From contig CAIJLV010000103.1 of assembly GCA_903821635.1 (NCBI GenBank), positions 13,231-77,230 of the forward strand: a stretch of 64,000 nucleotides of DNA, written 5' to 3'. The position numbers and the translations under genes were made by a program. The notes beneath the pieces were generated by a model, which did not search any database, was not told the origin of the DNA, and was given only the letters and a program-made list of their open reading frames with translations. Below are positions 43,695 to 64,000 of this stretch, piece after piece (position 1 is the stretch's first letter; every line of letters begins with the position of its first letter). Origin of the DNA: an uncultured Verrucomicrobiota bacterium. Its GTDB lineage: Bacteria; Verrucomicrobiota; Verrucomicrobiia; Limisphaerales; UBA9464.

Positions 43695-43757
43695 CCGCGA
43701 GCACCGGGCGCCCCGCTTGGCTGAGGCTGAGGGGAGGCTCGTTCTGGGGCTGCCTGC

Positions 43758-45248: not shown

Positions 45249-45294
45249 GGGCAGCGCACGGGTAAACAAAACGTCGGGCAATGTTCCGCCGAAT

Positions 45295-46767: not shown

Positions 46768-46871
46768 TTGGTGCCGCTGATTTCTCCTGAGCGTGGCGGC
46801 CGGTCAAGCGGGGAAGCCATGCCGGGAGTTTGCCGGATAAGCGGGCGGCGGGCGGCCCGGCGGGCGCCCAC

Positions 46872-48374: not shown

Positions 48375-51267
48375 GGGATGAAGAGAAATTCGTTGGCGTT
48401 GAGCACGGCGCGGCAGAGGGCGGCCAAACCGTGGGTGCGGGTGAAGGCTACCGCTTCCTTTGCCTCGGCCCGGGCGGGCTTGCGGTTGAAGGCCAGTTGC
48501 CACGCGTGTTGCACCTGGGCCGCGGGATTGGGACCGGCTTCCCGCTGCAACCGGGCGGCCAAGATCTCCGCCTGTTGCAGCATGAAGCGGCTGTTAAACA
48601 GGTTGAGCGCCTGGAGTGGCGTGGTCGAAAGGTTGCGCCGGGGCATCACCAAGCTGCCGTCCGGACAGTCGAAGGCCCCGAAGATGCCGTCCTGCTCCAT
48701 TCGCACCTTGAAGGCGTAAACCATGCGGCGCGCTTCGGCGGGGCTGAACACTTCCTTCGGGTGATAGTGGTAAACGTTTTCCCGATCCACTTCGTGCAAG
48801 AAGAAGCTCGGTCCGCCCGGGGTGGAATCCAGATTGCCGCTAACCGTGAGGATGCTGTCGCGGATGGCCTCGGCCTCCAGGCGGCGCGGGGGAAAGCGCC
48901 ATAGCAAACGGCTGGCCGCATCCACCTTCAAGGCGTCAGGGCGGGGCGTGTTTGCCTGGCGCCACGTTGCGCTGGTCAAGATGAGGCGGTGGAGGTGTTT
49001 CAGGGACCACGGCTGCACGGGGCCGGGGCCGGGGTTCACCGTGGGCTCGACCAGTTCCCGGGCCAACCAATCGAGCAGTTCTGGATGGGTCGGCTTTGAC
49101 CCGTTGCGGCCAAAGTCGCTCGGCGTATCCACGAGCCCCACACCGAAATGATGCTGCCAGAGTCGGTTCACTATGACCCGGGCCGTCAGCGGATTTTCCG
49201 GACTGGCCAGCCAATCGGCCAACTGCGCCCGGCGGTCTGGCTCCGGCGTTTCCGGGGCCAGTTGGCGCGGTTGGAAGAGGCCCAACGTGCCGGGGGCCAC
49301 GCGTTCGCGTTTTTGCATCGGGTCACCGCGGTGCAACCGGTGCGTGGCGGCGGGTTGGGTAAAGGTGCCGGCGTAGAGCAGGGTTGGCTTGGCGACCGAA
49401 TCGCGCTCCTGACGCAAGCTCTGGAGTTCGGCCAAACGCTGGCGGCCCTCGGCGGCGTCCGTAGCGGAGAAGTGTTCGAAGTAATAGACGGGCTTCGGGG
49501 CGGGTTGGGGCGCGCCGGAGAAGGGTTTTCTGCCCGCGGAGCTGGCTACTTCCCGCCATTGGCCGGGTTCGGTCGCGACCTCGATCAGGTAATCCGTCGC
49601 CAAGCGGTCCTTGAAGCGGCCTTCGCGGTCCCGGCCCCAAGTCAGGCGCTCGACCCGCTCGGTTTGCGCCAACTCCAACTGCACCCAACCGCGGCCTGGC
49701 TCGCTCGAAATCCAAGAGTGGTCATTGCCCAAGCGGCCGTCATTCAGATGTTGCAGCCGATGGATTTCGTAGCCCGGCAGCGTGCCGGAGGCGGTGACTT
49801 TGGTGCCGGTGGTGGCCAGCGCGACGTTGTGGTCACCGGCCCAGACTTCCAGTTCGTCCAAGCCTGGCTCGCCCCCGGTGGTGGCGCGGATGGTGAACCG
49901 GACGAACTTCGCCGCCACCGGCGGAAAGCGGTCGTCGTTGCGCAAAAAATCGACGGCGGGCCGGGGCGCATTAGTGGCGGTGGGCGGCGGCAAGAGGAAG
50001 CGGGCCAACTGTGTTTCCCGCTCACGGATGCGGGCTTCGAGCGCTTGCAGGCGGGCCTGCTGGGGAGTCGGCAGCGGTTGGGCGCGTTCGCCGTGCTGCA
50101 CGCCGGCAAATAGCGCGGTCAGCGCGTAATACTCCCGGTGCGAGATGGGGTCGAACTTATGCGAGTGGCAGCGCGCGCACCCCAAGGTCAGGCCGAGGAA
50201 GGCCGTGCCGGTGGTGTTGACCATGTCGTCCAATTCATCGGCCCGTTGCTGCGCGGTCAGCACGGGGTCGGGGCTCTTCACGATGTCCACCGGTCCGCCC
50301 ACGAGGAACCCGGTGCCCACTGCCGCCCCGAGGGTGTCGCCGGCGATCTGCTCGCGGATGAACTGGTCGTAGGGTTTGTCGTCGTTGAAAGCGGCGATCA
50401 CATAGTCCCGGAAGCGCCACGCGTTCGGTCGTTCCCGGTTGGTCTCGAAGCCGTTGCTCTCGGCGAATCGGATCACGTCGAGCCAATGACGGCCCCAGCG
50501 TTCGCCGTAGCGCGGGTCGGCGAGGGCCCGCTCCACCAACCGCTCAAAGGCACCGGGTTTCCGGTCGCCGACAAACGTGGCCAACTCCGCCGGCGACGGC
50601 GGCAAGCCGAGCAGCACTAGGTAAAGTCGGCGGATGAGGGTCACCCGGTCCGCAGCGGGCGAGGCGCTGAGTTGGTGGGCCGCCAACTGCACGTGGATAA
50701 ACGCATCGATCGGATTTCTGGTCGCCGTCCGCTTCGCCCCGTCCACCGGCACCGGGGACGCTGCACCGGGCGAAACGACCAGTGCGTGGGGGGCGGATCC
50801 CCCGGCGGACGCGAAGCTTCCGGCCACCCTGCGCCCTGATCGATCCAAGCCCGCAACCGGCCGATTTCCGCGGCGGTGAGCGGCGCCCCCTTGGGTGGCA
50901 TCTGACGTTCGGGCACGAGGCCGGCGACGAAATGGATCAAGGGGCTCGCCGCACTGTCGCCCGGCCGGATCACCGGCGCATGTTCGTCACCCCCTTGGAG
51001 GGCGGCCTCCCGGCGGTCCAGTTGCAGGCCGCTCTTTTGTTGGGTGGGCCCGTGGCATTCCACACAGTGCTGGGCGAACAACGGCTGAATGTCTCGGACG
51101 AAGTCGATGGTCTGGTCGGCCGCTGCGGGCAACCGGGTAAGATCCACCGCGGCGCCCGCCGGCAGGGCCAACAAACTGAGGGCTGCCGCGGCAAGTTGCG
51201 CCCGCCAAGTGCGCCCAATGGGTGACCGGAGGCGACGGTCGTTCGCCTTACTCAATGCAGGAGTCAT
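48371..51267 (-). pseudogene. PSCyt1 (CxxCH) - DUF1549 - F5/8 type C (discoidin)-like - DUF1553 protein, interrupted by a 1-nt frame break
   Basis: The ORF 50641-51267 encodes a signal peptide, FAQHCVECHGP and ...THWSFRPVQRP. The family sequence then continues in the other frame as PVPVDGAKRTATRNPIDAFI... in ORF 48371-50848, whose track start is only a TTG artefact. The break maps to GGGG at 50754-50757. The total span is 2897 nt, one short of a multiple of three. Confidence 0.7.
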
Positions 51268-51289: not shown

Positions 51290-51786
51290 ATTCAACGTGC
51301 CACCGCCGCGGGGCCCTTGGGAAGACCAACCCGTGTCCGCCGCGATCCCCAGTTGGGGCCGTCCCGCCGGGCCCGGGCCGAAGCCGGTCGCGACTCAACG
51401 GCCTGACTTCATGGCGCGGTTGAAAGCGAACTGCGGCAACCCGGTGCTGGCGGTCATGGCGTCGGCGGGAAGTGGTAACCCCTGATCAGGCTGGCCGGCC
51501 CATCCGAAAGGGCGGGATTGCCTCGTCCGGGGCTTGCTCGGTTGGCTGTCCCACGGCTCACGCCGTGGGCTGCTATCTACCGCTGTTCCGCAGCTTTCAT
51601 CGGCCGCCCGCCACGAACTGGATTTCCTTGGGGCTACGCCTTCACGGCGCTGAAAATCTCCTCCCGTGGAACGGCTGAAATATCCATGGCGAGGCGGGCG
51701 CTGGGCTTACCAAACTGTTTCAGCAGGGGATTCGGTTCGAGTTGAGTTGGGGGTAACTCAATGCGGTTTAACCGCTTGGAATCAAT

Positions 51787-51871
51787 GGTGCGCCCGGCAG
51801 GACTTGAACCTGCACGATGTTACTCACTAGAACCTGAATCTAGCGCGTCTGCCAATTCCGCCACGAGCGCA
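51787..51871 (-). tRNA. tRNA-Leu (anticodon CAG)
   Basis: Manual cloverleaf on the minus strand. Acceptor GCGCTCG/CGGGCGC with one G-U pair, anticodon arm CTAGA-TTCAGGT-TCTAG, long variable arm, T arm GCAGG-TTCAAGT-CCTGC, and an encoded CCA. 85 nt. Confidence 0.9.
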
Positions 51872-51948: not shown

Positions 51949-53076
51949 TCACCTCACCGCGGCGCTCGACCGATAGAGCGTGGCCAACTCCCGAAGCAGG
52001 ATCTCCAAGCGGGCTTCATATTCGATTTCAGTGAACTCGGCCTTGCGATCCCGGAGGCTCGCGACGTCGACTTCGAGGCGATCCCGGCGGGTGCGTTGTT
52101 CGGGTGTCAGCCGGGTTTCGGCGGCGCTCCGGACCAGGTGCCATTGGTGGGCGCGCAGGCCGTCCAAAGCGTGTTTTCCCTCGGCCTTCTGGGTGGCTCG
52201 GAGGCCCCGGAACCAATCCGCCGGCGTGCCGAATCCGTCCCCGTTGTCGTCGATCAGAGCGTGCTCCGAGGCCAGCCGACTCTGGGTGCGGTAGAAATCC
52301 AGCACGTTGGCCGAGGCATGGAGGAACGATTCCAGCAGCGAGGTCTGGCCATCTTGGTCCAAGTCGGCCACGGGGGAAGCGGCGGCCCGGGCAAGCTCCA
52401 GTCCGAACCGGGCAAAACTCGTCTCGTAGCCGCTCCGGGTGGCGGTGATGACGATGCGGTTTGGGCCCGCGAGCGGCTTGAGGAAGGGGCCGCTGGCCGA
52501 AGCGGTGTTGATGACTGCGACTGGGCGCGTGAATGGTTTCAGGATCGAAGCCAGTTCAGTCACCGTCAGGTCGGGGCCGCGCAGGTTGAAGCGGGCCTCC
52601 TTGCCGTCAAAAGTCCCGTGACCGATCAGCACGACCCAGAGTTCGGCCAAGCCCGCCTTGGGTTCGGCTTCGAGCTGCTGCTTCAGGTCATGCAGGTCGT
52701 TGGTGCCGCCGGGTGTCCGGCCCAGTTCAAGCTTGCGTGCGCCCGCGGTCTCGCTGGCTTGGCTCCAAAGCGAAGCCTGTTCGACGAACTGGGCGGCGAA
52801 CTCGGGATCCCCCGGGGCACCGAATACGAGCAGCACGGTGGGGACGGCGTTGGTGGTCGCGTGCAGCGGCCACGAACCGAGGGTCAACCACACCAGTAGT
52901 CCGATCAGCCAACCCAACGGAGCGCCGCCGGTTATGGCCGAGCGCTCACGGCACCTGGGTGCTGGCGAAAGGCGGAAGGTGGAACATGGAGCCGGGCGAG
53001 GCTTAAAACCGCCGCTGCCGTCGCCGTCAGGGGATGAACCCCTCGCCTGACAGCCGCCGTTTGGATTTCGCTTCAT
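51949..53076 (-). CDS. Membrane-anchored clan CD / peptidase C13 (legumain)-like protein with Ser at the expected catalytic Cys position
   Basis: One TM helix (LGWLIGLLVWLTLGSW). ELWVVLIGHGTFDG is a His-Gly block. VAVINTASASGPF...RIVITATRSGYETSF parallels bacterial C13 SACYSGGF...VITAA...R.SFG. The start at ATG 53076 lies 2 nt after the upstream stop. Confidence 0.5.
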   Translation of the reverse strand: MKRNPNGGCQARGSSPDGDGSGGFKPRPAPCSTFRLSPAPRCRERSAITGGAPLGWLIGLLVWLTLGSWPLHATTNAVPTVLLVFGAPGDPEFAAQFVEQASLWSQASETAGARKLELGRTPGGTNDLHDLKQQLEAEPKAGLAELWVVLIGHGTFDGKEARFNLRGPDLTVTELASILKPFTRPVAVINTASASGPFLKPLAGPNRIVITATRSGYETSFARFGLELARAAASPVADLDQDGQTSLLESFLHASANVLDFYRTQSRLASEHALIDDNGDGFGTPADWFRGLRATQKAEGKHALDGLRAHQWHLVRSAAETRLTPEQRTRRDRLEVDVASLRDRKAEFTEIEYEARLEILLRELATLYRSSAAVR

Positions 53077-53078
53077 GT

Positions 53079-55448
53079 TCACGGTAAACCCCTCCTTCGG
53101 CGCAGGCCCCATTCCGCTACGAAACAAAGCAGGGCGAACCCGAACCAAGCCGGATGGTGCCAGGCCGGCCGCGCCCAGGGCTCCATCACTGGGGCTAGTT
53201 TAGTCGGCAAACGGGCCACAAAGTCCTTTAACCGGTCGGCGGCAACGACTTCGCCGCCGGTCTTCTGGGCGAGGCGTTCGAGCAGCGCCACGTTGGGGGT
53301 GAGGGACCGGAATTCTTCCGCCGCGAGATCCGTGCTCCAACCCGCTTCAGCCCGGCCCACCGCGGCGCCGGTGGCATTCGTCACGTAGGCGGTCGCCTTG
53401 TAGCCGCCGGTGAGGCGCGGCACGTAGGTGAGTTGGTAAAGCCCGGCTTCGTTCAACGCCGGCTCGGCGGGTAGGCGGATGCGTTGGGTTGGCGCGGGGT
53501 CGGTCCCGAACACGATCGGCTCGATCTCGACCACGACGCTGGCGTTGTCGAGCGCTTGGAACTTCGCGTCGCGCACCCGGACCTGAAGTTGCCGTGCGTC
53601 TTGGCCGTCACCGACGACGGGTTCGACGGTCAGGTCCACCCGGTTTGGCACGTCGGCCACTAGCCAGCGGAGCAACTGTCGCCACGTCTGGTCCAGGTCC
53701 TGGCGTTTCTCGGCGTCCTGCATGCCCCAGCGCCAAAGGTCGCCGATGGTCAGCGCCGCACTGCGACCCCGGCCGAAGCGTTGCGTCACCAGCGCGGGCA
53801 ATTGGTGGCCCTGGTCGTCGGTGGCGGTGGCGATGACGCTCGCGCCCGGCTTGACGTCGCGCACGGGATTCACCACGCCGAACTGCGGCATGGCCGTGAC
53901 GCGAGCGCGTTCCTCGAGCTCGTTGTCGCGCACGCGGGCCCAAGGTTGCAGCCAGCCTTCGCGCGACAATTCAAACTTCACCGTATTGCCGGTGCGGGGC
54001 AGGGGCGCGCGGTCGAGGTAGACGGGCAGCACGTCGCCGATCGGGGTGCGCTCATACTTGCCCTGCGCAAACGACTCGGCGCCGCCCAGCATCAGGAAAC
54101 CGCCCCCGCGTTCCGACACAAACTTCTGGAGCAGCAACGCTTGGTCCGGCGCGAAAAAGTCCGCCTCCAAGTCGTCCACGATCACCGCGTGGTAGCTGTA
54201 GAGCTCCTCGGCTGTGCGCGGGAAACCACTGCGCAGTTCCACTTCGTCGCGCGTGTTCAGGCGCACGAGCACCGGTTGGTCGTAGCGTTCGACTTCTTCG
54301 CGGCCCTGTTCGCCGAAACCGCGAAACAGCGGATTGCTCGTTTCGCCGACCCGGCCGCGGAAGTCGAACTTCGGTTCGCGCTTCGCCACGCGGATCAAGC
54401 CGACCAGTTGAAGTTGGGGGTCTTCGGTAAGGGCGCGGTTCAAGAACTTGAATTCCCAGTTGGGCCGGCCGGCGACATAAAGAATCCGGTAGGCGTCGCG
54501 CCCGCGATCGACGGCGATCACCCGGCGGTTGTTGGCGAGCGTGGCTTCGGTGGAATTGGTGGTCACCCCGGACCGGAGTTCAGCCCGGGTGCCGACGCGG
54601 ACTTCGTAGAAGGACAGGCCCGGCTTTTCGGGTTTGAGCTGAAGCCGGAGCGTGGTCGGTTCGCTGTTCGGCCGAGCTGCCAAGCCCGTCTCCTGCACGA
54701 CCTGGCCGGTGCGGTCCACGATCTGCGCCAGCAGCGCCTCGCTGCCGAGTCCGCTCGCTGCAATCTGGGCCTGCACGGCGACCGGGGCGTCTTCAAAGGC
54801 GGATTGGTTGACGGCGACTTGGAGCAACGACACGTCGCGGGCCGGTCGTTGGTTGCCGATCACGACCGGATAGATTGGCGGCAGCCCGGCGAGGTCCGGC
54901 AGCCCCCCGCGCAGGTCGGTCGCATTGCCATCCGTGAGCAGCAGCACGCCGGCGAGCGGACGTCCCTTGAAGCGTTCGCCCAGCGTCTTCAGTGCCGCGC
55001 CAATGGCGGACGAACGGCCGGTGAAGTCGAGCTCTGCGAAGTCGCGGCTGCTCTGAACGCGCGCATCGAACAGGTAGCGGCGCACGTCGAAGTCCGTCGC
55101 GAGCGTCTCCTGCCAGTCGTCGGGCTTGGTGGCGAGCAACTCGCGCAGTTCCTCGCCACGCGTGCGCGTGGCGCCGGGATCACGAATTTGGAGTCCCTGG
55201 CTGTTGTCGGCGACGACGGCGAAGAGGTTCGCGCCGGAGCGGGCGCGTTGGCCGGTCCAGAGCGGCTCCAACAGGCAGAAGACGAGCGCCGCCAAGCCGG
55301 CGGTTTTCAGGAGCAGACAAACCCAGCGCAAACCGGGCGTGGGCGCTGTGCGGTAACTCCACCAGAGCAGCGCCAACGCTACGACCAAAGCACCGAGCAA
55401 CGGCACCAACCAGCCTAGGGCGGAAAAGGTGAGGATGGCGAAGATCAT
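53079..55448 (-). CDS. Multi-TM protein with degenerate VWA-like region and GATase1-like (DUF1355-type) domain
   Basis: N-terminal double TM (MIFAILTFSALGWLVPLLGALVVALALLWW; VCLLLKTAGLAALVFCLLEPLW). LLLTDGNATD. RILYVAGRPNWEFKFLNRAL...YHAVIVDDLEADFF...GGGFLMLGGAESF is the GATase1_like pattern. A C-terminal TM is also present. Confidence 0.65.
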   Translation of the reverse strand: MIFAILTFSALGWLVPLLGALVVALALLWWSYRTAPTPGLRWVCLLLKTAGLAALVFCLLEPLWTGQRARSGANLFAVVADNSQGLQIRDPGATRTRGEELRELLATKPDDWQETLATDFDVRRYLFDARVQSSRDFAELDFTGRSSAIGAALKTLGERFKGRPLAGVLLLTDGNATDLRGGLPDLAGLPPIYPVVIGNQRPARDVSLLQVAVNQSAFEDAPVAVQAQIAASGLGSEALLAQIVDRTGQVVQETGLAARPNSEPTTLRLQLKPEKPGLSFYEVRVGTRAELRSGVTTNSTEATLANNRRVIAVDRGRDAYRILYVAGRPNWEFKFLNRALTEDPQLQLVGLIRVAKREPKFDFRGRVGETSNPLFRGFGEQGREEVERYDQPVLVRLNTRDEVELRSGFPRTAEELYSYHAVIVDDLEADFFAPDQALLLQKFVSERGGGFLMLGGAESFAQGKYERTPIGDVLPVYLDRAPLPRTGNTVKFELSREGWLQPWARVRDNELEERARVTAMPQFGVVNPVRDVKPGASVIATATDDQGHQLPALVTQRFGRGRSAALTIGDLWRWGMQDAEKRQDLDQTWRQLLRWLVADVPNRVDLTVEPVVGDGQDARQLQVRVRDAKFQALDNASVVVEIEPIVFGTDPAPTQRIRLPAEPALNEAGLYQLTYVPRLTGGYKATAYVTNATGAAVGRAEAGWSTDLAAEEFRSLTPNVALLERLAQKTGGEVVAADRLKDFVARLPTKLAPVMEPWARPAWHHPAWFGFALLCFVAEWGLRRRRGLP

Positions 55449-55563
55449 GCTAGGTTAGGCCTTTCGGCAAAGTGAGCTAGCGCCAGTTGCAAACTGGACG
55501 CGCCGCCGAGATAAACGATCCGCTTGAACCATCGGGAGGTATACTTGGCAGAAATGCCGGGAT

Positions 55564-55700
55564 CCGCCCGCTGATGCGCTGAGACTCCACCAGCTGGACG
55601 GACGAGGACTGTTTGGGGTTTGGTCATGGCACGCGGGGCTGCATCGGAGTTCCCGGTTTTGGAATGACGCGGGGCGTGGTGAGGTTCCCAGCGGCGACCG
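55564..55700. repeat. Degenerate copy of the repeat core also found at 63195-63319 and 63843-63900
   Basis: ccgcccgctg-N27-gacgaggactgtttggggtt (55564-55620). At 63195-63251 the element reads ccgcccgctg-N27-gacgaagactgtttcgggtt, with identical spacing and 18/20 identity in the distal block. Similarity continues for about 80 nt further. Confidence 0.6.
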
Positions 55701-55766
55701 ACTGAGGCGGGTCAACGATTCCGCCCGCCCCATGCGTCGTGCGCTCCAGTGCTGGTTCGGATCCGC

Positions 55767-58700
55767 TCACTTGTCTTTCCCCAATTCTTCGTAGTAGCGG
55801 CGCACGAGTTCCGAGTAACGCGCCGGCACTGGGTCGCGGTCAATCGGCACGAGCGAGTCCTTCACGTCGCGTCGGGCGAGTTCTTCCTGCAATTTTTGAC
55901 GCACCTCGACGAGCGGTTTGACCACCTGCAACTGCACGGTCACCCAGTCGGGCTTCGTGCGCTCGCGCTTGAAGTCCTGCCGCATCAGCCGGGCGCGTTC
56001 CCGGGCCGAGGAAACTTCAGTTCGCAGATCGGGCTGATCCACCATTTCCTCGACGTCGCGCAAACGGTCGGACCACTCGGCAAAGTCGCCCCCCGTGATG
56101 GGGCCGCCGCGGGAACCCTGTCCCTCGGTGCCACCGCCATCGTTGGCCAGTGTCGGATCGAGACTGCGCAGGTCGAGCCCACCCCGCTGACCGCGCTGGT
56201 TGTTGGCCGGCTGCGGCCGATTGCCCCGACCGCCTTGGCCGGGTTGCTGCCCTTGTTGCCCTTGCGTCTGCCCCGGCTGTGGTCCGGCCGGTTGCCCCGC
56301 TTGTTCGGAAGGCTGCTGGCCTGCGCCGGGCTGACCCTTCGGGGCAGGCTGATCGGCTTTGGCTTGCTGGTTGCCGGGCCGCTCGCCGGCACCTTGCTGG
56401 CCGGCGGGCGAAGGCTGCGGTTCCGAACCGGGTTGGCCGTCACCCGCCCGCGCGGTGGTGTTAGTTCGTGAGCCGCCCGGTTGCCCTTCACGTGCCTGAC
56501 CGGACTGGCCCCCGGCGACTTGATTGGTGCCACGGTCGCCGGCTTGACCGGCCCCGCCGGGACCGAACTCGCGCTCCAGTTGGTTGGCGAGTGCCTCCAG
56601 TTCCTTCTCCGCGAGCCGGAGCGCCTCGGTGTCGTCGCCCAAGACGTTTTCCGTCGCCTTGTCCACGCCCTTGCGAAGCTGGTCGAGCGTGGCGCGGGCG
56701 CGGCGTTCGGCTTCGCGGGCGGGCGGCAGGAAACCCTCGCGCAGGACGGCCTCGGCGGAACCCAGCGCCTTGCCGTGCTCGTCCTTCGCCAGATTCTGGA
56801 GATTCTCGAACAGGCCGCGGGTCAGCGTGCCACGCTGGATCAACTCCTCCTGCGTCTGCTTGAGCGCTGCGCCGTCATCCTGCGTGAGCTTGCGGATGGA
56901 ATCGTAAAGCTGCCGCGCCACCAGCGGTTCGGTGGCTTCGGCCTGTTCGGACAACTGCGCGGCCTGGTTCACCAAATTGGTCAGCCGCTGACGTTGCTGG
57001 CCCAGTTGGTCGGCGAGCTTCTGGCGTTCGCCGTTGTCGGCGAGCGTGCGCTGCTTGTTCTGCTCCAAGTCGGCGAGCTGCTTGGCGATTTCCTCCTCGC
57101 GGCGGGCGAGGTCACGGGCCTCGGCGCGCAGTTGGCGCATCTCCTCAGACAAGCCGGACGAATTTTGCTTCCGCAGTTCGTCGCGCAGCTCCTGCAACTG
57201 CCGCTGGGCGCGTGTGCCGGCGGAAAGCGCCTGCGACATATTGCCTTGGTTGGCGGCCTCGCTGGCGCGCTGGAGGTCCTCGCGGGTCTGCTCCAACTGT
57301 TGCTTCTGCTCGGCCATCTTCTGCTGGTTCTCGGGGCGCTCCATGCGCTGTTGGAGTTCGTCCGTGTCGGCGAGCATCTGGCGCTGCTCTTCCTGGAGGC
57401 GTTTCAACTGCCGGCGCAGTTCGTCCTTTTCCGGCTCAGCCTTGGCCGCCTGTAAGGCAGTCTGAAGTTCCTTGAGCCGTTCGTTGAGGTCCTCCTGCCG
57501 CTGCGCAAGTTCACGGAGGCGGTTCAGGACTTGTTGTTCTTCCCGGCGTTGCGGGTTTTGCGCGGCCTGTGCCTGCGGTTGAGATTCATAGCGGTTGTCG
57601 GCCTGTGCCAAGTCGAGTTGTTCGAGCTGCATTTGCCGCATCTGTTCGCCCGCGCCGCTGCCCGGTGCGGCTCCCTTTTGGCCGCGCGTCACTTGAAACT
57701 CACGGTCGCGCACTTTGAGCAAGGCCTCGTAGGCGCTCTGCTGGGCCTTGAGGGCGGTGCCCAATTGCGCCGGCGATGACTTGGCCTGCGCCAGCTTTGC
57801 GAGCGCGTCGTTCAACTGCTCGATGGCCGTGGTCCAAAGACTGGCGAGGGCCGGATCTTGCTGCCGTTCCCGTGCGGCCTCGGCTTGGGAGACGGCCTCG
57901 GTCATCGCGTCATGCACGACGGTGACGTCGGCCTCGTAGCCGCCGCTGGAAGTCTTCTTGGCTTGGCCATCCACCAGCGCCTGAAGGCGCCGGGCCGGGG
58001 CGTTGTTGCCCTCGGCCCGCGGCTCGGAATCGGCGGCGGCGCGCTGGCCGAAGATGACTTGTGGCGAAGGCGGAAGGTGGAAAGCGGAAGGCGGAGCGAA
58101 ATGTTCCGAGGCGTGGGTATTCATCTCGCTGGCGGTTGCAGGCACAGCCGCAGGAGCTTGGGGGTTGCCCGCCCTCCCCCCCGAGGAGAAGGCAACGCCC
58201 GCTGACGCGAGGAGACGCGACCGGTCAGTCGGCCGAGGGCGACCCGGCTCCTTGCCCCGCCAAAACGTCGTCGGCTTCTTCGCGCCGGGCGCGGCCTTCG
58301 AATCGCTGGGTTGGCTGGTCTTGGGCTTCGCACCTTCCTGCCGTTGCAACTTCCACGTCGCGTTGATGATCTGTTTTTGAAGTTCGGCGAGTTTCGTGGT
58401 CGGGTTGCCGCCGCCGCTTTCCTCGCCCGGTTCGCCCCCGCTGCCCCCCATCTGTTCGCCTTCGCGAAAGATCTCTTCGAACGGTCGGATCTCGCCGAAG
58501 AACAGGTCGCCGTTCGTGCGCCGGATTTCGCCGTCGGGACCATAATCGTCGGCCCAGACAAACCACGCGACGAGTTGATCGGGTTGCAAGCCGAGCTCCT
58601 CCAAACGCAGCGTGTGGGCCAACGCCCGAGTCTCTTGGGCCGGCACGCTTCGGCCCAATTCCACCAAGGTGGGTTCGCCACCGCCCACCGAAAAAGCCAG

Positions 58701-59954
58701 GCCAAACGCGAGCACCCCGAAGTCGTCCCAAGTGGTGCCGTCGAAGGTCAATTCTTCCAGCGGACTCGGCCGAGCATCGCCGCGCGGTGCTTTGAGTTTC
58801 AGTTCCGGAACTCGGTTCGGTTGCACCTCGAAGACGAATTGCGCCGGCAGTTTGTTGGTGCGCCCGTCCGCATCCACCAACTGCAATTCGTAACTGGCGC
58901 TGGCCCTCAAGGGCAGCGGCCCCAGCGCCACGGCCGGTCGGTTGGTCTCGATGCGCAGCGCCAGATTCGTCACGCCGGCTTGGCGGCCGACCAGCGTCGC
59001 GGCGACGACCGGTTTATTGAGCTGCAGGGAAAGGCCGAGTTGCGAACCCTCGACCGCCGTGACGCGTCGGGTGTCCTCAATGTGTTTTGGCGGCAGCCCG
59101 GTGTAAGCCGGGTAAGTTAGGTCGGCGTCGGAACGCTCCAACCGCGGATATTCGAAGACGGTGACGCGGTAGTCGCGCGTGCGTTTGCCGGCGTAGGCGA
59201 TGTGATAGGCAAAACTGTCGTTGAGATCGGGCACGGTCACGCCGAACACCGGGTCCCCGAGACTGCGCACCAGCGGCAGGCGTCGGGCGGTCGCCGCGTT
59301 GGTGCCGAGGACGAGTTCGGCCGACTCCGGCGCGCCGGCCCCGAAACGCACCAGGACGACCAAGGTGGAGCCGCGCTCTAGGGTGCTGTCGCCCGGCGTG
59401 ACTTCGAGTCCGGTGTTCCGCGTGACGAGCACGGGCGCACCCGGCTTGAACGGCAACCGCCCCGCCCACAGCGCGCCGGCCAGCAAGGCCAAGGCGAGCC
59501 ACTGTCCCGCGTGGGCGAGGGCGAATTGGCGGGTCGGAATGGCGCGGCGCCAATCGCTCCGCAAGCTGCGTTCCGCGGCCTCCTCGACGACGCGTTCAGC
59601 CAGAAAGTTCAGCCTGCCCTCGGCTCCTCGGTGAATCTGGGTGGCGGTGAGTAACAGGCCGTCCAGCTCCGGATGACTCCGCTCGATTTCAGCCACCAGC
59701 GCGCCGAAGTCGGAAGGCGCAGATCGGTGCCGCCACACCACGATCACGGCGCCCAATAAGGCACCCGCGGTCAGAAGCGGGAACAACCAGGGCGAACCGA
59801 CGCCCACCAGCCGAGAGAGTCCAACCACGGCGCCCACGGCCAACGCGGCGGCGGCCCAATAACCGGCGAGCCGGCGCCAGAGTTGGAGCCGGCGCCGACG
59901 GCGCAGCACGCTTTGCAGGCGGACCTGCAAGAGGGTTTCCATCATCGTTTTCAT
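55767..59954 (-). CDS. Giant DUF4175-like membrane protein: N-terminal TM pair, beta-rich ectodomain, Q/E/R-rich coiled coil, G/Q/P-rich low-complexity region
   Basis: 1395 aa. The N-terminus RRRRRLQLWRRLAGYWAAAALAVGAVVGL is followed by a second TM. LTYPAYTGLPPK is the type of segment seen in TIGR02302/DUF4175 proteins. The heptad-rich region is long (LQ..L..L..QL). The C-terminus is IDRDPVPARYSELVRRYYEELG. The start ATG at 59954 overlaps the upstream stop (ATGA). Confidence 0.55.
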   Translation of the reverse strand: MKTMMETLLQVRLQSVLRRRRRLQLWRRLAGYWAAAALAVGAVVGLSRLVGVGSPWLFPLLTAGALLGAVIVVWRHRSAPSDFGALVAEIERSHPELDGLLLTATQIHRGAEGRLNFLAERVVEEAAERSLRSDWRRAIPTRQFALAHAGQWLALALLAGALWAGRLPFKPGAPVLVTRNTGLEVTPGDSTLERGSTLVVLVRFGAGAPESAELVLGTNAATARRLPLVRSLGDPVFGVTVPDLNDSFAYHIAYAGKRTRDYRVTVFEYPRLERSDADLTYPAYTGLPPKHIEDTRRVTAVEGSQLGLSLQLNKPVVAATLVGRQAGVTNLALRIETNRPAVALGPLPLRASASYELQLVDADGRTNKLPAQFVFEVQPNRVPELKLKAPRGDARPSPLEELTFDGTTWDDFGVLAFGLAFSVGGGEPTLVELGRSVPAQETRALAHTLRLEELGLQPDQLVAWFVWADDYGPDGEIRRTNGDLFFGEIRPFEEIFREGEQMGGSGGEPGEESGGGNPTTKLAELQKQIINATWKLQRQEGAKPKTSQPSDSKAAPGAKKPTTFWRGKEPGRPRPTDRSRLLASAGVAFSSGGRAGNPQAPAAVPATASEMNTHASEHFAPPSAFHLPPSPQVIFGQRAAADSEPRAEGNNAPARRLQALVDGQAKKTSSGGYEADVTVVHDAMTEAVSQAEAARERQQDPALASLWTTAIEQLNDALAKLAQAKSSPAQLGTALKAQQSAYEALLKVRDREFQVTRGQKGAAPGSGAGEQMRQMQLEQLDLAQADNRYESQPQAQAAQNPQRREEQQVLNRLRELAQRQEDLNERLKELQTALQAAKAEPEKDELRRQLKRLQEEQRQMLADTDELQQRMERPENQQKMAEQKQQLEQTREDLQRASEAANQGNMSQALSAGTRAQRQLQELRDELRKQNSSGLSEEMRQLRAEARDLARREEEIAKQLADLEQNKQRTLADNGERQKLADQLGQQRQRLTNLVNQAAQLSEQAEATEPLVARQLYDSIRKLTQDDGAALKQTQEELIQRGTLTRGLFENLQNLAKDEHGKALGSAEAVLREGFLPPAREAERRARATLDQLRKGVDKATENVLGDDTEALRLAEKELEALANQLEREFGPGGAGQAGDRGTNQVAGGQSGQAREGQPGGSRTNTTARAGDGQPGSEPQPSPAGQQGAGERPGNQQAKADQPAPKGQPGAGQQPSEQAGQPAGPQPGQTQGQQGQQPGQGGRGNRPQPANNQRGQRGGLDLRSLDPTLANDGGGTEGQGSRGGPITGGDFAEWSDRLRDVEEMVDQPDLRTEVSSARERARLMRQDFKRERTKPDWVTVQLQVVKPLVEVRQKLQEELARRDVKDSLVPIDRDPVPARYSELVRRYYEELGKDK

Positions 59955-62050
59955 GCGGTTGCCTCCGTCGGAAGTGCGCGGCGGGCAGTCCAGCCGGCCA
60001 GCGCGGTTTCGATCAACAGAACCAAAAGGGTGGCCAGCAGGAACCAGCGCCAGAGCTTTTGCCGCGACTCGGACTCAGCCGCCTGCAATTGCGTTTTGCG
60101 GAGGGCGCTCGCCGGCGCCGCGGCCAGCGGGTTGGCCGTTCCGATGCCGTAAGTCTCAAAGACATCGGCCGACCAGGGCGCGGTCCGGCTTTCGTTGGGG
60201 TCCAGATTCACCGCAAACCATTGCGGTGCCCCGCCGCCCTCGACGCGATAAAAACCGGGCTGGGTGGTGCCGGTGAAATTGGTGGCGCCGGCGGCCAGTG
60301 CCACCGAAGTCCCATCCGGCAGCATGACCTGCTGGCCGCCCGCCCGCAGTGCCAACGGCTCGCCGACGAGGGGTTGCGCCGGGGCCAGACCTGCCGTTGC
60401 GCCGGCGTAGTCGAGTAGGGAAAGGAGCAGCGGCACGAACTTCGTCGAGAGCGCGAGTTGGCTGTCTTCAGGCTGCCAGCCCGTGGTTAAAATGATCACG
60501 CGCCCGCGCCCCACCGGCACTTCAGCGAGGGCCGGACTGCCGGAATCAAACCGTGCCAGCACCCGTGCGCTGGGCACGGACGCCCAGTCGAGGACGCGGT
60601 GTTTCCACACGTGAATCTTGGTGAAATCGCTGAAGCGGGGGTCGGCAAACGGCGCGAACAACGGATGCTCGAAGTCCAGTTCGGCTAACATCGCATAATT
60701 CTTCACGGTCGCCTCGCGCAGCGGCAGGGCCGCGACGCCCAGCAGCGTCGCGAGTGGGGCGCCGGCGGCGGCGTTGACCGGCGCAAAAAGGATCGTCTTG
60801 CCGGCGAGCGCCGCTTCCCGCAGCAGCCCGGCTGTCGGGGCGGAGAGGGCGCCCGTGACCAGCACGAGCCCCGCTGCGGCGACGTCGCCGGCACTGAGTG
60901 CGGCTTGGCCGGTGCGGGCATCCAGCGTGACGCGTTGCCGGGGGGAATCCGGCAAGGCCCGCCGCAAAAAGAAGAGCGGTTGGCGAGCGTCGCCCGCGGC
61001 GTCGGCGCCGAGGTAAAGCACGCGCAAGGTCGTCGGTTCAGGCGGAATCACGTAGGCTACATTGTCAAAAGGTTCGTCGTCACCGCGTAACTGAACCCGT
61101 CGCGTGGGGGGCACGCCGGGGGCCGCCGGGGGCGGCAGCGGCAAGGCGACGACGCGACTCTGGCCGGGCGGCACATACACGTCGGAGGCCGGCCCGACGA
61201 ACGTGTCGCCGGCCTCGGCCCAACCGACTTGGAACTGCTCTTGGGTCGCTTCCGGCGCGTTGCTGACGCGCACCCGCACGGCGGAATTGGTGAGACTGGT
61301 GTCCGCGGCCTCCGCGACGATTTGGACGCCAGCGTTGCCGGGGGACTTGGCCTTTAACGGGGGCACCAGCAGTTGAAGATTCTTCGGCCAGTCGTAGGCC
61401 TGAAGTTTTTCCAGCCGGCCGCCTTCCTGCACGTCGCTGAGGAGCACAATCTGGCGCAGCGGGGTGGCTTGTTGGACTTCAGCTTCGGTCACCATTTCGG
61501 CGGCGGCAATCAAGGTCGTGCCGAGTTGCGTGGCACCCCAGCCGGGCTTGAGCGCCTCCAGTTTGCCCCGGGCCAAGGCGGCGCGGTCGCCCGGGGGCGC
61601 GGCTTGCCAGTCTTCAAAAGAGACGAGGCGGTTCACCTCGTGATCGAAGGCGAGCACGGCCACTTGGTCGCCGGGCGTCGTGTGGCCCAAGATGTCTGCG
61701 GCCTGCGCGAGAGCGGCGGACCAGAGTCCGGCGCGTTGCATGGAAGCGCTGCGGTCCACGAGCACCACGAGTCGGCGGGGTTGGCCGGAAACGGGTTCGG
61801 CGACCGAGGGATTTTTCAGAAACGGGCGGGCAAAACCGAAGGTGAGCAACGCCAGCGCGAGGCAACGCAACAGCAGGAGCAGGAGGTCTTCGAGCCGGCT
61901 GCGTTTCGTGAGGCGCGGCGGCGTGGGCGACAGAAACAGCAACGAACTGAACGGTAACCGTTCACGCGTGCGCCGCCGGATCAGGTGCAACACCACGGGC
62001 AGCGCCAGCGCCAACGCCCCGAACAGAAAGGCGGGGGTGAGAAAATTCAT
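59951..62050 (-). CDS. BatA N-terminal domain plus VWA-like domain membrane protein
   Basis: MNFLTPAFLFGALALALPVVLHLIRRRTRERLPFSSLLFL is the aerotolerance-regulator BatA_N pattern. A second TM follows. VVLVDRSASM is a DxSxS MIDAS-like motif. The C-terminal TM is WRWFLLATLLVLLIETALAGW. GGAGGG lies 8 nt upstream of the ATG. Confidence 0.75.
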   Translation of the reverse strand: MNFLTPAFLFGALALALPVVLHLIRRRTRERLPFSSLLFLSPTPPRLTKRSRLEDLLLLLLRCLALALLTFGFARPFLKNPSVAEPVSGQPRRLVVLVDRSASMQRAGLWSAALAQAADILGHTTPGDQVAVLAFDHEVNRLVSFEDWQAAPPGDRAALARGKLEALKPGWGATQLGTTLIAAAEMVTEAEVQQATPLRQIVLLSDVQEGGRLEKLQAYDWPKNLQLLVPPLKAKSPGNAGVQIVAEAADTSLTNSAVRVRVSNAPEATQEQFQVGWAEAGDTFVGPASDVYVPPGQSRVVALPLPPPAAPGVPPTRRVQLRGDDEPFDNVAYVIPPEPTTLRVLYLGADAAGDARQPLFFLRRALPDSPRQRVTLDARTGQAALSAGDVAAAGLVLVTGALSAPTAGLLREAALAGKTILFAPVNAAAGAPLATLLGVAALPLREATVKNYAMLAELDFEHPLFAPFADPRFSDFTKIHVWKHRVLDWASVPSARVLARFDSGSPALAEVPVGRGRVIILTTGWQPEDSQLALSTKFVPLLLSLLDYAGATAGLAPAQPLVGEPLALRAGGQQVMLPDGTSVALAAGATNFTGTTQPGFYRVEGGGAPQWFAVNLDPNESRTAPWSADVFETYGIGTANPLAAAPASALRKTQLQAAESESRQKLWRWFLLATLLVLLIETALAGWTARRALPTEATA

Positions 62051-62162
62051 GGGCTAACCCTCCGACAAAGGCGTTGCTGAATTGGGAAAACCGGAAAACC
62101 TAAAGGCGGACTGGGTTGCCAATGGCTGCCCGATTGTCGGCCTGCCTGATTCAGTTCGTGAT

Positions 62163-63104
62163 TCATCGGCTCCCCCCGTTTCGTGCCCGAGCGACGTGGC
62201 GGCGTTGGGTCCGTTCGCGCAGGAAGTCAAACAGGGCGAGTTCGAGCGGTTGATCGGTGGTCAACCGGTGGCAGTGCGCGCCCAGCTTCTGGCACAGGTC
62301 CCGCACGGCTTGGCAATGGGCCTCCAGCTTTTGGATGTAACTGGTGCGCACGGCCTGCGGATCAACGAACAGCGTGCGGCCGGATTCGAGGTCCTCGAAC
62401 AGGGTCGGTTGGTCGAAGCCGAAGTTCAGCTCGGCGGGATCGAGCACTTGGAAGACGGTCAGTTCATGCCCGGCCGCGGCGAGGGTCGTGAGGCAGCGGT
62501 CGAGGTTTTCGAGCGGCGTGAGGAAGTCCGAAACCAACACCAGAAGGCCCCGCTTGCGGACGATTTCCGCGACCCGTCGCAGCGGCGTAACGAGGTCGGT
62601 CGCAGTTCCCCCGGCGGGCTGCTCCAGCGCGAGCATCAGGTGCCGCAGGTGGCCGGGGCGATGGCGGGCGGGGAGGTATTCGCGCACGCCGGCGTCGAAG
62701 GAGAGCAGGCCGATGGCGTCGCCTTGCTGATGGAGAAACCAGGCGAGCGTGGCGCTGAGCGTGGCGGCGTATTGCGCCTTGGTGACACCGGCCGAGGCGA
62801 AGTCCATGGATCGGCTCTGGTCTACGATCAGGTGGCAGCGGAGGTTCGTTTCGTCCTCGAATTTTTTGATGTAAAAGCGGTCGCTGCGGCCGAACACGCG
62901 CCAGTCCACGTAGCGCGGATCGTCGCCCGGCGTGTATTGGCGATACTCGGTGAACTCGACGGAGAAGCCGTGATAGGGACTGCGATGGATGCCACTCCAG
63001 AAGCCCTCGACGACGGCACGCGCCCGCAACTCAAGGTTGCGGATGTTCATCAACGCCTTCGGGTCGATGAACTTCGTCGCGGGGTTGGTGGTGGAGGCGG
63101 TCAT
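62163..63104 (-). CDS. DUF58 domain-containing protein (MoxR-associated, VWA-like)
   Basis: GIHRSPYHGFSVEFTEYRQYTPGDDPRYVDWRVFGRSDRFYIKKFEDETNLRCHLIVDQSRSM is the canonical DUF58 core. The start is set at ATG 63104, because upstream of it the track ORF reads through a repeat element. Confidence 0.88.
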   Translation of the reverse strand: MTASTTNPATKFIDPKALMNIRNLELRARAVVEGFWSGIHRSPYHGFSVEFTEYRQYTPGDDPRYVDWRVFGRSDRFYIKKFEDETNLRCHLIVDQSRSMDFASAGVTKAQYAATLSATLAWFLHQQGDAIGLLSFDAGVREYLPARHRPGHLRHLMLALEQPAGGTATDLVTPLRRVAEIVRKRGLLVLVSDFLTPLENLDRCLTTLAAAGHELTVFQVLDPAELNFGFDQPTLFEDLESGRTLFVDPQAVRTSYIQKLEAHCQAVRDLCQKLGAHCHRLTTDQPLELALFDFLRERTQRRHVARARNGGSR

Positions 63105-63154
63105 CGGGTGGAGGCGGAACGTGGACCAAGAATTGGGGAAGGAGAATTGATGAC

Positions 63155-63357
63155 GCCCGCCCTCACCCCGGCCCTCTCCCCCAAGGAGAGGGAGCCGCCC
63201 GCTGGCGCAGAACAACTCCACAAACTGGGCTGACGAAGACTGTTTCGGGTTCGCCGAGGAGTGCCCGGGCTGAATCGGAGCCCGCAGCTTTGGAACGAGC
63301 ATGGACGCCGTGACCTTCTCCCTCTCCCCGGGGGAGAGGGTTGGGGTGAGGGCGGGC
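63155..63357. mobile_element. MITE-like 203-bp element bounded by about 27-bp terminal inverted repeats, each containing a GC-rich hairpin
   Basis: The left end is gcccgccctcaccccggccctctcccc (63155-63181). The right end is ggggagagggttggggtgagggcgggc (63331-63357), whose reverse complement matches the left end at 25/27. Local palindromes are CCCTCTCC...GGAGAGGG at 63172-63192 and 63320-63340. Confidence 0.55.
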
Positions 63358-63403
63358 CACCTTCCATCTTTTCAACCGCCCCGACCTTTGCCACACCGTC
63401 CAC

Positions 63404-63853
63404 ATGAATTTGCGCCCACTTGCCCGGCAATTGCGCCAGCGCGAGACGTGGGCAGAACGCCTGGTGTGGCGCTGGCTGCGCGACCGGCGTTTCGAGGGCT
63501 ACAAGTTTCGCCGGCAAATCCCCAAGGGTGACTTCATCGTGGACTTTGTCTGCGAGGAAGCCGCGCTGGTCATCGAACTGCATGGCAGCCAGCACGGGTT
63601 CCCCGAGCACCAGGCTCGGGATGCGGCCAAGGACGCTTATCTCACCAGCATGGGATTCAAGACATTGCGCTTCTGGAACGGCGAGTTGCGTCGGCGCGAG
63701 GCGGAAATCAAGGAGACCATCTTTCGGGAACTTCACGCGCGGGCGCCGCATCCTGAGCCTTCGTATTGGCGAAGCGGCATGGTTGGAAAGAAGTTTGAGG
63801 ACTCCCGACCTCACCCCAACCCTCTCCCCCGGGGAGAGGGGGACGCCCGCTGA
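63404..63853 (+). CDS. DUF559 domain (Vsr-like / restriction-endonuclease-fold) protein
   Basis: ARQLRQRETWAERLVWRWLRDRRFEGYKFRRQIPKGDFIVDFVCEEAALVIELHGSQH...LTSMGFKTLRFWNGEL is the DUF559 pattern. The last 13 codons (RPHPNPLPRGEGDAR) are encoded by repeat unit 3. Confidence 0.8.
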   Translation: MNLRPLARQLRQRETWAERLVWRWLRDRRFEGYKFRRQIPKGDFIVDFVCEEAALVIELHGSQHGFPEHQARDAAKDAYLTSMGFKTLRFWNGELRRREAEIKETIFRELHARAPHPEPSYWRSGMVGKKFEDSRPHPNPLPRGEGDAR

Positions 63854-63900
63854 CGCGCCGTTACTCAACAGGCCTGACTGACGAGGACTGCGAAGGGTGA
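63804..63900 (+). repeat. Repeat unit 3 (hairpin) plus truncated repeat core
   Basis: cccgacctcaccccaaccctctcccccggggagaggg (63804-63840), then cgcccgctg-N27-gacgaggactg (63844-63890). It has the same architecture and orientation as the unit at 63155-63251. Confidence 0.6.
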
Positions 63901-64000
63901 CGCCGGCGCCAACGAGGGACGCCCGCAATCCTAGATAGCGGAGGCTCATCAACGCCTTTGGGTCGATGAACTTCGTCGCGGGGTTGGGGTTGGGGGCGGT
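63900..64000 (-). pseudogene. Diverged partial duplicate of the DUF58 gene 5-prime end, running off the window
   Basis: It aligns without gaps to 63001-63101 at an offset of 899 bp, with 47/51 identity over 63950-64000. It translates to TAPNPNPATKFIDPKALMSLRYLGLRASLVGAG, compared with TASTTNPATKFIDPKALMNIRNLELRARAVVEG in the intact gene. Confidence 0.5.

Follow-up and report, generated by a model that had tools for sequence, protein, structure and literature searches.

Operons in which genes for a MoxR ATPase, a DUF58 protein and a BatA-type protein lie together have been described since 1999 and are widespread, pathogens included, and they are still without a biochemical function (PMC3557215, PMC11834572). 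In the Bat systems (BatI of Bacteroides fragilis and those of Riemerella, Francisella, Leptospira and, as BB0170-BB0176, Borrelia), a MoxR ATPase of the MRP type (AAA_3) and DUF58 are followed by VWA proteins that combine a BatA_N hairpin with a metal ion-dependent adhesion site (MIDAS), by a second VWA-like membrane protein, and by TPR (BatC/BatE), BatD and SH3 components. These systems have links to stress and to the envelope, and mutants of Bat and MoxR in Riemerella and Francisella tolerate stress poorly (PMC11834572). A second known type, the RL3499–RL3502 operon of Rhizobium leguminosarum, brings MoxR and DUF58 together with a BatA_N protein, a DUF4159 domain and a membrane protein of low complexity and DUF4175 type. 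Its products RL3501 and RL3502 presumably provide the BatA_N/DUF4159 and DUF4175-type parts. According to work cited in PMC5700661 and PMC3893208, its mutants have defects in envelope integrity and morphology, and RL3499 is important for an intact membrane and for the morphology of the cell (Vanderlinde 2011, as cited in PMC3893208). Here, we describe a related cluster on the minus strand of a 64,000-nucleotide stretch of contig CAIJLV010000103.1 (hereafter the window) from an uncultured Verrucomicrobiota bacterium of the Limisphaerales. We lean, with modest confidence, toward the reading that its five genes form the distal end of an operon that is conserved as (DUF4159)–MoxR–DUF58–BatA/VWA–DUF4175-like–VWA/GATase1-like–p5, an envelope system of the Bat/RL3499 type in which MoxR and DUF58 would assemble a periplasmic scaffold. 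This variant was not found described in any paper; its kinship with the Bat and RL3499–RL3502 operons is with an already known type.

The original prediction, made from the letters of the window, had proposed a Bat-like, MoxR-associated envelope cluster of five co-directional minus-strand genes. Open reading frames (ORFs) were checked by coordinates and continuous translations (the G+C content of the window is 61-68%), and all five genes were found where they had been placed. In the order of transcription, with lengths in nucleotides (nt) or amino acids (aa), they are as follows:

62163..63104, minus strand: DUF58 gene, 313 aa, inside a larger ORF (62163-63302)
59951..62050, minus strand: BatA-type membrane protein gene, 699 aa
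55767..59954, minus strand: DUF4175-like giant membrane protein gene, 1395 aa
55449..55766: intergenic gap of 318 nt, with a repeat copy at 55565-55611
53079..55448, minus strand: VWA/GATase1-like membrane protein gene, probably the second Bat-like one, 789 aa
51949..53076, minus strand: gene p5 for a protein with a predicted caspase/legumain fold, 375 aa from ATG 53076, within ORF 51949-53148

The junctions were also as predicted: a 112-nt spacer between the DUF58 and BatA/VWA genes, an ATGA overlap of the BatA/VWA and 1395-aa genes at 59951-59954, a 318-nt gap with a repeat after the latter, and a last gene whose ATG lies 2 nt after the 789-aa gene. The ATGA overlap and the short gaps indicate that the cluster genes are likely co-translated. 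A 92-aa ORF in the 318-nt gap was conserved in none of 160 loci and was rejected.

Conservation of the cluster was assessed by two scans. One, of genomes (one per GTDB species) and seeded on the 789-aa family, returned at least 587 relatives, and synteny was read from the best 80, which belong to the Verrucomicrobiota (Opitutae, Limisphaerales, Pedosphaera and the cultured Horticoccus). The other, of metagenomes and seeded on DUF58, gave 80 loci, with a best identity of 85%, or 97% on a contig of 1.8 kb. The order conserved in relatives is DUF4159–MoxR–DUF58–BatA/VWA–DUF4175-like–VWA/GATase1-like–p5, in which the caspase-fold gene p5 always stands directly after the GATase1-like gene. This full seven-gene order was present in 42 of the approximately 45 Verrucomicrobial genome loci with enough flanking sequence; most long metagenome loci have the same order, and at locus L161 it is also what independently made gene calls, labelled with precomputed Pfam matches, show. 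Such recurrence of one gene order on dozens of independent contigs is far from what chance would give. In relatives, MoxR is preceded by one or two stand-alone DUF4159 genes (1e-45; 1.3e-44 in Gemmatirosa), whose products have a signal peptide, so the link to the DUF4159/DUF4175 type drawn in the original prediction is supported by the relatives. The closest long locus (L001, 85% identity) reads DUF4159, DUF4159, MoxR, a 258-aa gene of unknown function, a DUF559 insertion, DUF58, BatA/VWA, the giant gene and the GATase1-like gene, and its MoxR matches AAA_3 at 7.8e-63, with a secondary bpMoxR match at 3e-12. Some metagenome-assembled genome records of GTDB/INSDC (L115, L118, L122, L125, L126, L129, L133, L148 and L156) carry the Verrucomicrobial-type operon under the titles Klebsiella, Akkermansia muciniphila, Limnocylindrales or Binatia, apparently through mislabelling or mis-binning.

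The cluster is also modular. In Gemmatirosa kalamazoonensis (Gemmatimonadota, L162), all seven genes lie at one locus in a permuted order, with GATase1-like–p5 ahead of DUF4159–MoxR–DUF58–BatA/VWA and the giant gene. Moreover, the GATase1-like/p5 pair stands alone at L081, L160 and L163, the trio of giant, GATase1-like and p5 genes occurs without adjacent MoxR or DUF58 at L164 and L165, and DUF58 loci without the distal genes are found at L007, L009, L029 and L030. Since the pair and the trio occur apart from the MoxR part, the MoxR–DUF58–BatA part and the giant–GATase1-like–p5 part are usually, not always, linked. Nothing that would have refuted the original prediction was seen: its domain calls are upheld at the Pfam, orthologue or fold level, its five genes are real and syntenic in relatives, and MoxR lies upstream there. 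The unit, however, has seven or more genes and is modular.

The DUF58 protein matches the Pfam model DUF58 at 1.6e-48 (165 bits against a cut-off of 23.4), in agreement with its original call, and VWA_2 at 1.6e-08. It carries a MIDAS-type motif, DQSRS, and no hydrophobic or membrane segment was predicted in its 313 residues. Its gene lies directly after MoxR in most relatives, and the protein is presumed to be a cytoplasmic VWA-like adaptor of the MoxR ATPase. The BatA-type protein matches BatA (1.9e-18) and VWA_2 (5.5e-11) in Pfam and the double-transmembrane model two_anch (TIGR02226, 2.5e-20) in NCBIfam. It begins with a double transmembrane (TM) hairpin, continues with the VWA domain and a C-terminal region with a weak GATase1-like/DUF4350 signal, and ends in a C-terminal TM segment (TM segments 3-21, 56-74 and 670-688). 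Its MIDAS (D99-R-S101-A-S103, T174, D206) is complete, since D99, S101, S103 and D206 are invariant and T174 is conserved at 90% or more in 30 orthologues. The BatA_N plus VWA architecture, DRSAS motif and C-terminal TM segment read earlier from the translation therefore hold. The DUF4350 model was matched by 8 of the 30 orthologues, and the orthologue of Gemmatirosa matches GATase1_like at 7e-4. The VWA domain of the Borrelia BatA-type protein BB0173 was shown experimentally to face the periplasm (PMC5700661), and by analogy we infer a periplasmic VWA domain here. A search of the PDB gave no solved structure for the DUF58 or BatA-type proteins; MoxR matched 2r44 alone, a structural-genomics entry.

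The 789-aa protein, described earlier as a multi-TM protein with a GATase1-like domain, matches GATase1_like (PF07090) at 2.3e-12 (47.5 bits against a cut-off of 27), as do all 22 orthologues, and its sequence matches in the PDB are the GATase1-like structural-genomics entries 3soz, 3rht and 2gk3. After TM segments at 10-28 and 42-60 comes a VWA-like domain with a degenerate MIDAS (A80-D-N-S-Q-G85 ... T172-D-G), followed by a beta-sandwich region. Behind the GATase1-like domain lies an immunoglobulin (Ig)-like domain of the Big_1/Filamin kind (Filamin, MG2 and Big_1 matches are weak), and the protein ends in a hydrophobic tail with a conserved Glu-Trp and then RRRR. As to the Cys-His-Glu triad of the GATase1-like domain, no invariant or near-invariant Cys or His was found in residues 406-597 of the 22 orthologues, and the nucleophile-elbow region reads F-L-M-L-G-G-A-E-S. 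None of the 22 orthologues gave a VWA match in Pfam; the Gemmatirosa orthologue alone matched the model, at 6e-4 and below the cut-off. An hhalign comparison of the 789-aa and BatA/VWA families gave a weak C-terminal match (probability 13%), so their paralogy rests on motifs and on the Gemmatirosa cross-matches. Judged by these, BatA/VWA and the 789-aa protein probably have the same architecture and may form a pair like BatA and BatB, with the 789-aa protein probably being the second VWA membrane protein, a BatB analogue. The gene set is therefore less exotic than had been stated: it is non-classical, as predicted, but a BatB-like member is probably present. Both proteins have hydrophobic tails (667-690 in BatA/VWA, 763-789 in the 789-aa protein) in which an invariant Glu precedes Trp and Arg residues (E681 ... 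W, R in the former and E779-W780 ... R783-R784 in the latter). This charged residue shared by the C-terminal anchors may be a common interaction site.

The 1395-aa protein was called DUF4175-like in the original prediction. Its own match to DUF4175 lies below the Pfam threshold (E=0.012, 14.1 bits against a cut-off of 27.3), and NCBIfam gave no match, but 18 of 25 orthologues match the model at E<=0.01 (best 5e-7) and the Gemmatirosa orthologue reaches 26.0 bits against the same cut-off. Therefore, we accept the sequence-based designation DUF4175-like at the family level only. Two TM segments had been counted, whereas three membrane helices are predicted with the AlphaFold model: an Arg-rich N-terminus is followed by two TM helices, a small helical domain (83-138) and one more TM helix (141-166). 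Next come three Ig-like beta-sandwich domains in tandem (about 184-490) and an Ala/Pro-rich linker. For residues 1-520, the model has a mean predicted local distance difference test (pLDDT) score of 86.2, and Foldseek returned generic matches to tandem Ig/FN3/MG domains. Three TM helices put the Ig-like domains on the other side of the membrane from the Arg-rich N-terminus; if the latter lies in the cytoplasm, these domains and all that follows them would be periplasmic. The coiled coil and the G/Q/P-rich region of the earlier description fit the composition by segment: residues 660-1130 (about 470 aa) consist to 61% of A, Q, L, E and R and are presumed to form a coiled coil, and residues 1130-1285 are of low complexity, with 26% Gly, 18% Gln and 12% Pro. 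The C-terminal domain of about 110 aa is conserved. In many Verrucomicrobia the gene is split in two (551 + 690 aa; L161 10001-13991), giving a TM plus Ig-like part of about 550 aa, with many database homologues, and a coiled-coil plus C-terminal part of about 690 aa.

The last protein of the cluster, p5, may start at TTG 52917 rather than at ATG 53076, which gives the 322-aa version present in the database (100% identical); its residues are numbered here by this form. The N-terminal hydrophobic stretch ends in LHA and reads as a signal peptide or signal anchor, so p5 is probably exported. No Pfam or NCBIfam model was matched, and Peptidase_C13 gave nothing even at E<=10; among 42 relatives, Peptidase_C13 was matched faintly by 4 (best E=0.036) and EF-hand_5 by 8, on a DDNGDG loop. 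A search of the PDB with the family sequences likewise gave nothing meaningful. The AlphaFold model built from 42 sequences (pLDDT 84.8, predicted template modelling score 0.85) found 50 PDB matches at E<=1e-3 with Foldseek, all of clan CD, among them MALT1 (7.7e-6), SAVED-CHAT, caspases, metacaspase 9 and the legumain-type asparaginyl endopeptidase 6azt (3.5e-4). In the model, G99-H100-G101 follows strand beta3 and I-N-T138-A-S140-A-S142-G-P-F follows beta4, and the acidic DDNGDG loop and a C-terminal helical hairpin are also seen. By its position in the predicted secondary structure, His100 would be the equivalent of the catalytic His of clan CD. Thus, p5 has, as modelled, the caspase-hemoglobinase fold, and the copy in the window is without the nucleophile Cys. 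The C13-like label given earlier was right in that the fold is of clan CD, but p5 has no Peptidase_C13 match and Thr138 stands for the catalytic Cys.

Residue statistics for p5 were taken from 150 family representatives of at most 50% mutual identity and, separately, from 97 operon-verified orthologues. His100 is present in 150/150 representatives and in all operon orthologues, and Ser142 in 146/150 representatives, Cys-less members included. Position 138 varies, with Cys in 77 representatives, Thr in 32, Gly in 18, Ala in 12 and Ser in 6; among the operon orthologues Thr prevails (79, against 9 with Cys), Thr being the residue in the window and Ala that in Gemmatirosa. The family is large, with 3142 clusters at 50% identity (E<=1e-3), and no Pfam model covers it. 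In the same operon context, the nucleophile position may thus be occupied by Thr, Ala, Gly, Ser or Cys, which favours a non-proteolytic role; p5 is here most likely a binding subunit, perhaps Ca2+-dependent, and a partner of the GATase1-like protein.

Compared with the Bat systems, the cluster shares MoxR (in relatives), DUF58, the BatA_N/MIDAS-VWA protein and, probably, the second VWA-like membrane protein, which agrees with the Bat-like, MoxR-associated character first proposed. It differs in that TPR, BatD and SH3 components are missing, as had been noted; no Pfam match to any of them was found in the five proteins or their orthologue sets. Unlike Bat, it has the DUF4175-like Ig/coiled-coil giant, GATase1-like domains, the caspase-fold protein and, in relatives, one or two secreted DUF4159 proteins. 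With RL3499–RL3502 it has in common DUF58, a BatA_N protein and a DUF4175-like membrane protein with a low-complexity region, and in relatives also MoxR and DUF4159. By contrast with that operon, DUF4159 is in relatives a separate signal-peptide protein ahead of MoxR, the BatA_N protein bears a VWA domain, the DUF4175-like protein is marginal for its Pfam model, and two genes (VWA/GATase1-like and p5) are extra. With clan CD (legumain, C13; caspases and paracaspases, C14; CHAT), p5 shares the predicted fold, a Gly-His-Gly that follows strand 3 and, behind strand 4, a loop of small residues, and Peptidase_C13 is the sole clan-CD Pfam model that its relatives match. It differs from that clan by Thr (window) or Thr/Ala/Gly/Ser (about half of the family) in place of Cys, a presumably periplasmic location, the C-terminal helical hairpin, the DDNGDG loop and its constant place next to the gene of a GATase1-like membrane protein.

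Upstream of DUF58, the window departs from the order seen in relatives. The features of this region are:

63105..63898: insertion between the upstream operon part and DUF58, holding a DUF559 gene and palindromic repeats
63404-63853, plus strand, opposite to the cluster: DUF559 gene (Vsr-like endonuclease fold; Pfam DUF559, 1.3e-33)
63155-63194, 63317-63357 and 63804-63843: G+C-rich palindromic repeats of 40 nt flanking the DUF559 gene
55565-55611, 63196-63242 and 63844-63890: related repeat copies, the first inside the 318-nt gap
63899..64000, minus strand: duplicated 5' end of DUF58, 79% identical to 63000-63101 (the first ~100 nt of DUF58)

The start codon of the duplicated DUF58 5' end would fall just beyond the window edge. 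The palindromic repeat family, with the core CCCTCTCCCCNNGGGAGAGGG, gives 6 matches against 0.02 expected by chance and encodes GEGRGEG/PSPPGRG-like peptides in either direction. The same DUF559 insertion was found in three related contigs (L001, L002 and L050). In all four sequences, the frame opened at the duplicated DUF58 5' end runs uninterrupted through the whole insertion, for 299-401 open codons (window 63101-64000; L001 8958-10004; L002 8991-10004; L050 23-1228), while the remaining two frames have 7-12 stops each. This bridging ORF is antisense to DUF559, passes through the palindromic repeats and stops at a TGA that shares letters with the ATG of the true DUF58 gene (ATGA, 63101-63104). 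In this way, translational coupling may be kept, or polarity avoided, in spite of the insertion. As a conventional gene, the 283-aa ORF at 63101-63952 (counterpart unk327 in L001) was rejected: it has no Pfam match, is antisense to DUF559 and consists of repeat-encoded sequence. The original prediction had placed a MoxR gene beyond position 64000. MoxR does lie upstream of DUF58 in relatives, but the sequence from 63105 to 64000 is the DUF559 insertion and the duplicated DUF58 5' end. A few relatives have an optional 258-aa gene between MoxR and DUF58 (L001 8248-9024, L118 102-794, L129 644-1336), which overlaps the (duplicated) DUF58 start by ATGA. Its product has C-terminal hydrophobic segments and neither a Pfam nor a PADLOC match, and the gene may also lie just past the window end.

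On the other side, the cluster has a real 3' boundary, since a gene for tRNA-Leu(CAG) (51786-51870, minus strand) lies 79 nt past the p5 stop and the genes beyond are unsyntenic. Beyond the tRNA gene, on the opposite strand, is an Acido-Lenti-1 small RNA match (51550-51595, plus strand; 47.6 bits against a gathering score of 37). The genes 3' of p5 (41730-51267, minus strand) are a set typical of the Planctomycetes-Verrucomicrobia-Chlamydiae group, with DUF2851, CotH kinase and S9 peptidase genes in addition to the following:

50641-51267, minus strand: PSCyt1 cytochrome c gene
48371-50848, minus strand: PSCyt2/PSD1 gene
46872-48503, minus strand: DUF1501 gene

No synteny of the PSCyt1, PSCyt2/PSD1, DUF1501, DUF2851 and CotH genes with the cluster was seen in the loci of relatives.

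The analysis itself establishes which genes are present, how they are ordered and conserved, which domains and folds are assigned to their products and in what state the motifs are. By analogy with the systems described above, we infer topology, complex formation, MoxR/DUF58 action and a physiological role for the operon as follows. A cytoplasmic MoxR AAA+ hexamer would work with its VWA-like adaptor DUF58, and the pair would spend ATP to assemble or remodel inner-membrane-anchored proteins via the parts that lie in the cytoplasm. The conserved loop of the BatA_N hairpin and, in the DUF4175-like protein, the small helical domain are candidates for the contact. In the general model of MoxR/VWA pairs, the VWA domain takes hold of a peptide, and the protein so bound is remodelled by MoxR (PMC7159879). 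The periplasmic scaffold would consist of the MIDAS-competent VWA domain, the Cys-less GATase1-like domains, the Ig-like domains and the long coiled coil, together with secreted DUF4159 and p5, the latter binding without proteolysis alongside the GATase1-like protein, and could serve envelope integrity or stress tolerance. What the original prediction called an envelope-spanning machine would be this putative assembly.

Several observations weigh against it. Among the Bat systems themselves, Leptospira batABD mutants had no phenotype (PMC3557215); moreover, the literature on DUF4159, DUF4175 and the MoxR of Verrucomicrobia/Akkermansia yields no functional study of this variant. No homologue of MoxR or DUF4159 was found by tblastn anywhere in the 64-kb window, and because the DUF559 insertion stands between DUF58 and the upstream sequence, co-transcription at this locus is putative. 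The proposed topology is based on hydropathy, the positive-inside rule and a monomer model. As the GATase1-like/p5 pair is found without the MoxR part, the two halves need not be one machine. Finally, His100 is invariant and Ser142 nearly so in Cys-less p5 members as well. A dead enzyme would not usually show this, and some chemistry may have been retained.

This last point leads to an alternative in which p5 is an active peptidase or transpeptidase, using Cys138 or, where Cys is absent, a Ser142/Ser140–His100 pair, and in which proteolytic maturation of other cluster products (e.g., the G/Q/P-rich region or the C-terminal domain of the DUF4175-like protein) is the key step. The clan-CD fold, the His in its canonical place, the residues kept even without Cys and the Cys present in about half of the representatives all speak for it. 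Moreover, the C/T-A-S-A-S-G-P-F motif resembles what we take to be the legumain loop, A-C-E-S-G-S, and the DDNGDG loop with its faint EF-hand matches recalls Ca2+-dependent enzymes of clan CD. However, Thr occupies the Cys position in the window and in most operon orthologues, with Ala, Gly and Ser also occurring, no Pfam peptidase model was matched at threshold, and we know of no serine-nucleophile enzyme on the clan-CD caspase fold. We therefore consider an active p5 unlikely. The modularity of the cluster has also to be weighed, as two independent systems could lie side by side, DUF4159–MoxR–DUF58–BatA/VWA being one and a MoxR-independent periplasmic module of DUF4175-like, VWA/GATase1-like and p5 proteins, with a function of its own, the other. 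The lone pairs and trios, the DUF58 loci without distal genes and the swapped halves of Gemmatirosa are all as this would predict. Nevertheless, the halves are adjacent and in the same order in nearly all Verrucomicrobial genome loci with enough flank and are still linked in another phylum despite rearrangement, which is hard to explain otherwise than by functional coupling. The ATGA overlap joins the BatA/VWA and DUF4175-like genes, that is, it bridges the two halves, and DUF4175-type proteins belong with the MoxR–DUF58 set in alphaproteobacterial operons. Two separate systems thus appear quite improbable to us.

A role in biological conflict, with an anti-phage vWA–MoxR system and the caspase-like protein as its effector, can be set against the same evidence. 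Ternary vWA–MoxR systems share with the cluster the chaperone/co-chaperone pair of MoxR and VWA, and caspase-like effectors are among their partners, some of them in Verrucomicrobia/Planctomycetes (Kaur, Burroughs, Iyer and Aravind 2020, PMC7159879); the secondary bpMoxR match of the MoxR of relatives points the same way. That MoxR, however, fits the classical AAA_3 model far better, and p5 is probably exported and mostly Cys-less. PADLOC models matched 0/8 cluster proteins, and domain searches found VMAP, iSTAND, FtsH and beta-propeller components in neither the window nor its relatives, which makes a defence reading unlikely. Also, the presumed envelope location, the fixed order and the single-copy, core-like conservation across the phylum are unlike variable defence islands. 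On these grounds, we regard a conflict system as very improbable.

Returning to the envelope system under MoxR and DUF58, the variant adds three conserved partners that constrain hypotheses on the long-known operons: the Ig/coiled-coil giant, the second VWA/GATase1-like protein and an exported caspase-fold family of ~3100 clusters. Cultured carriers exist in Horticoccus sp. 23ND18S-11 (L121) and Gemmatirosa kalamazoonensis KBS708, which makes genetics feasible. Should the products form one complex, a MoxR chaperone would gain a defined periplasmic output, and the Cys-containing and Cys-less caspase-fold proteins would offer a natural series for the study of pseudo-enzyme evolution. A bolder and rather doubtful extension is that the DUF4175-like, VWA/GATase1-like and p5 proteins form an undescribed periplasmic module that sets envelope architecture in Verrucomicrobiota and Gemmatimonadota under MoxR/DUF58 control, with a coiled-coil tether of ~470 residues and with p5 acting by new chemistry on a caspase scaffold, e.g., a Ser–His dyad or Ca2+-dependent ligand clamping. 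A legumain-like p5 may then have repeatedly swapped its Cys for Thr, Ala or Gly while keeping the invariant His and the Ser-x-Ser loop. Such a module, if real, would give the Bat/MoxR operons a concrete structural output.

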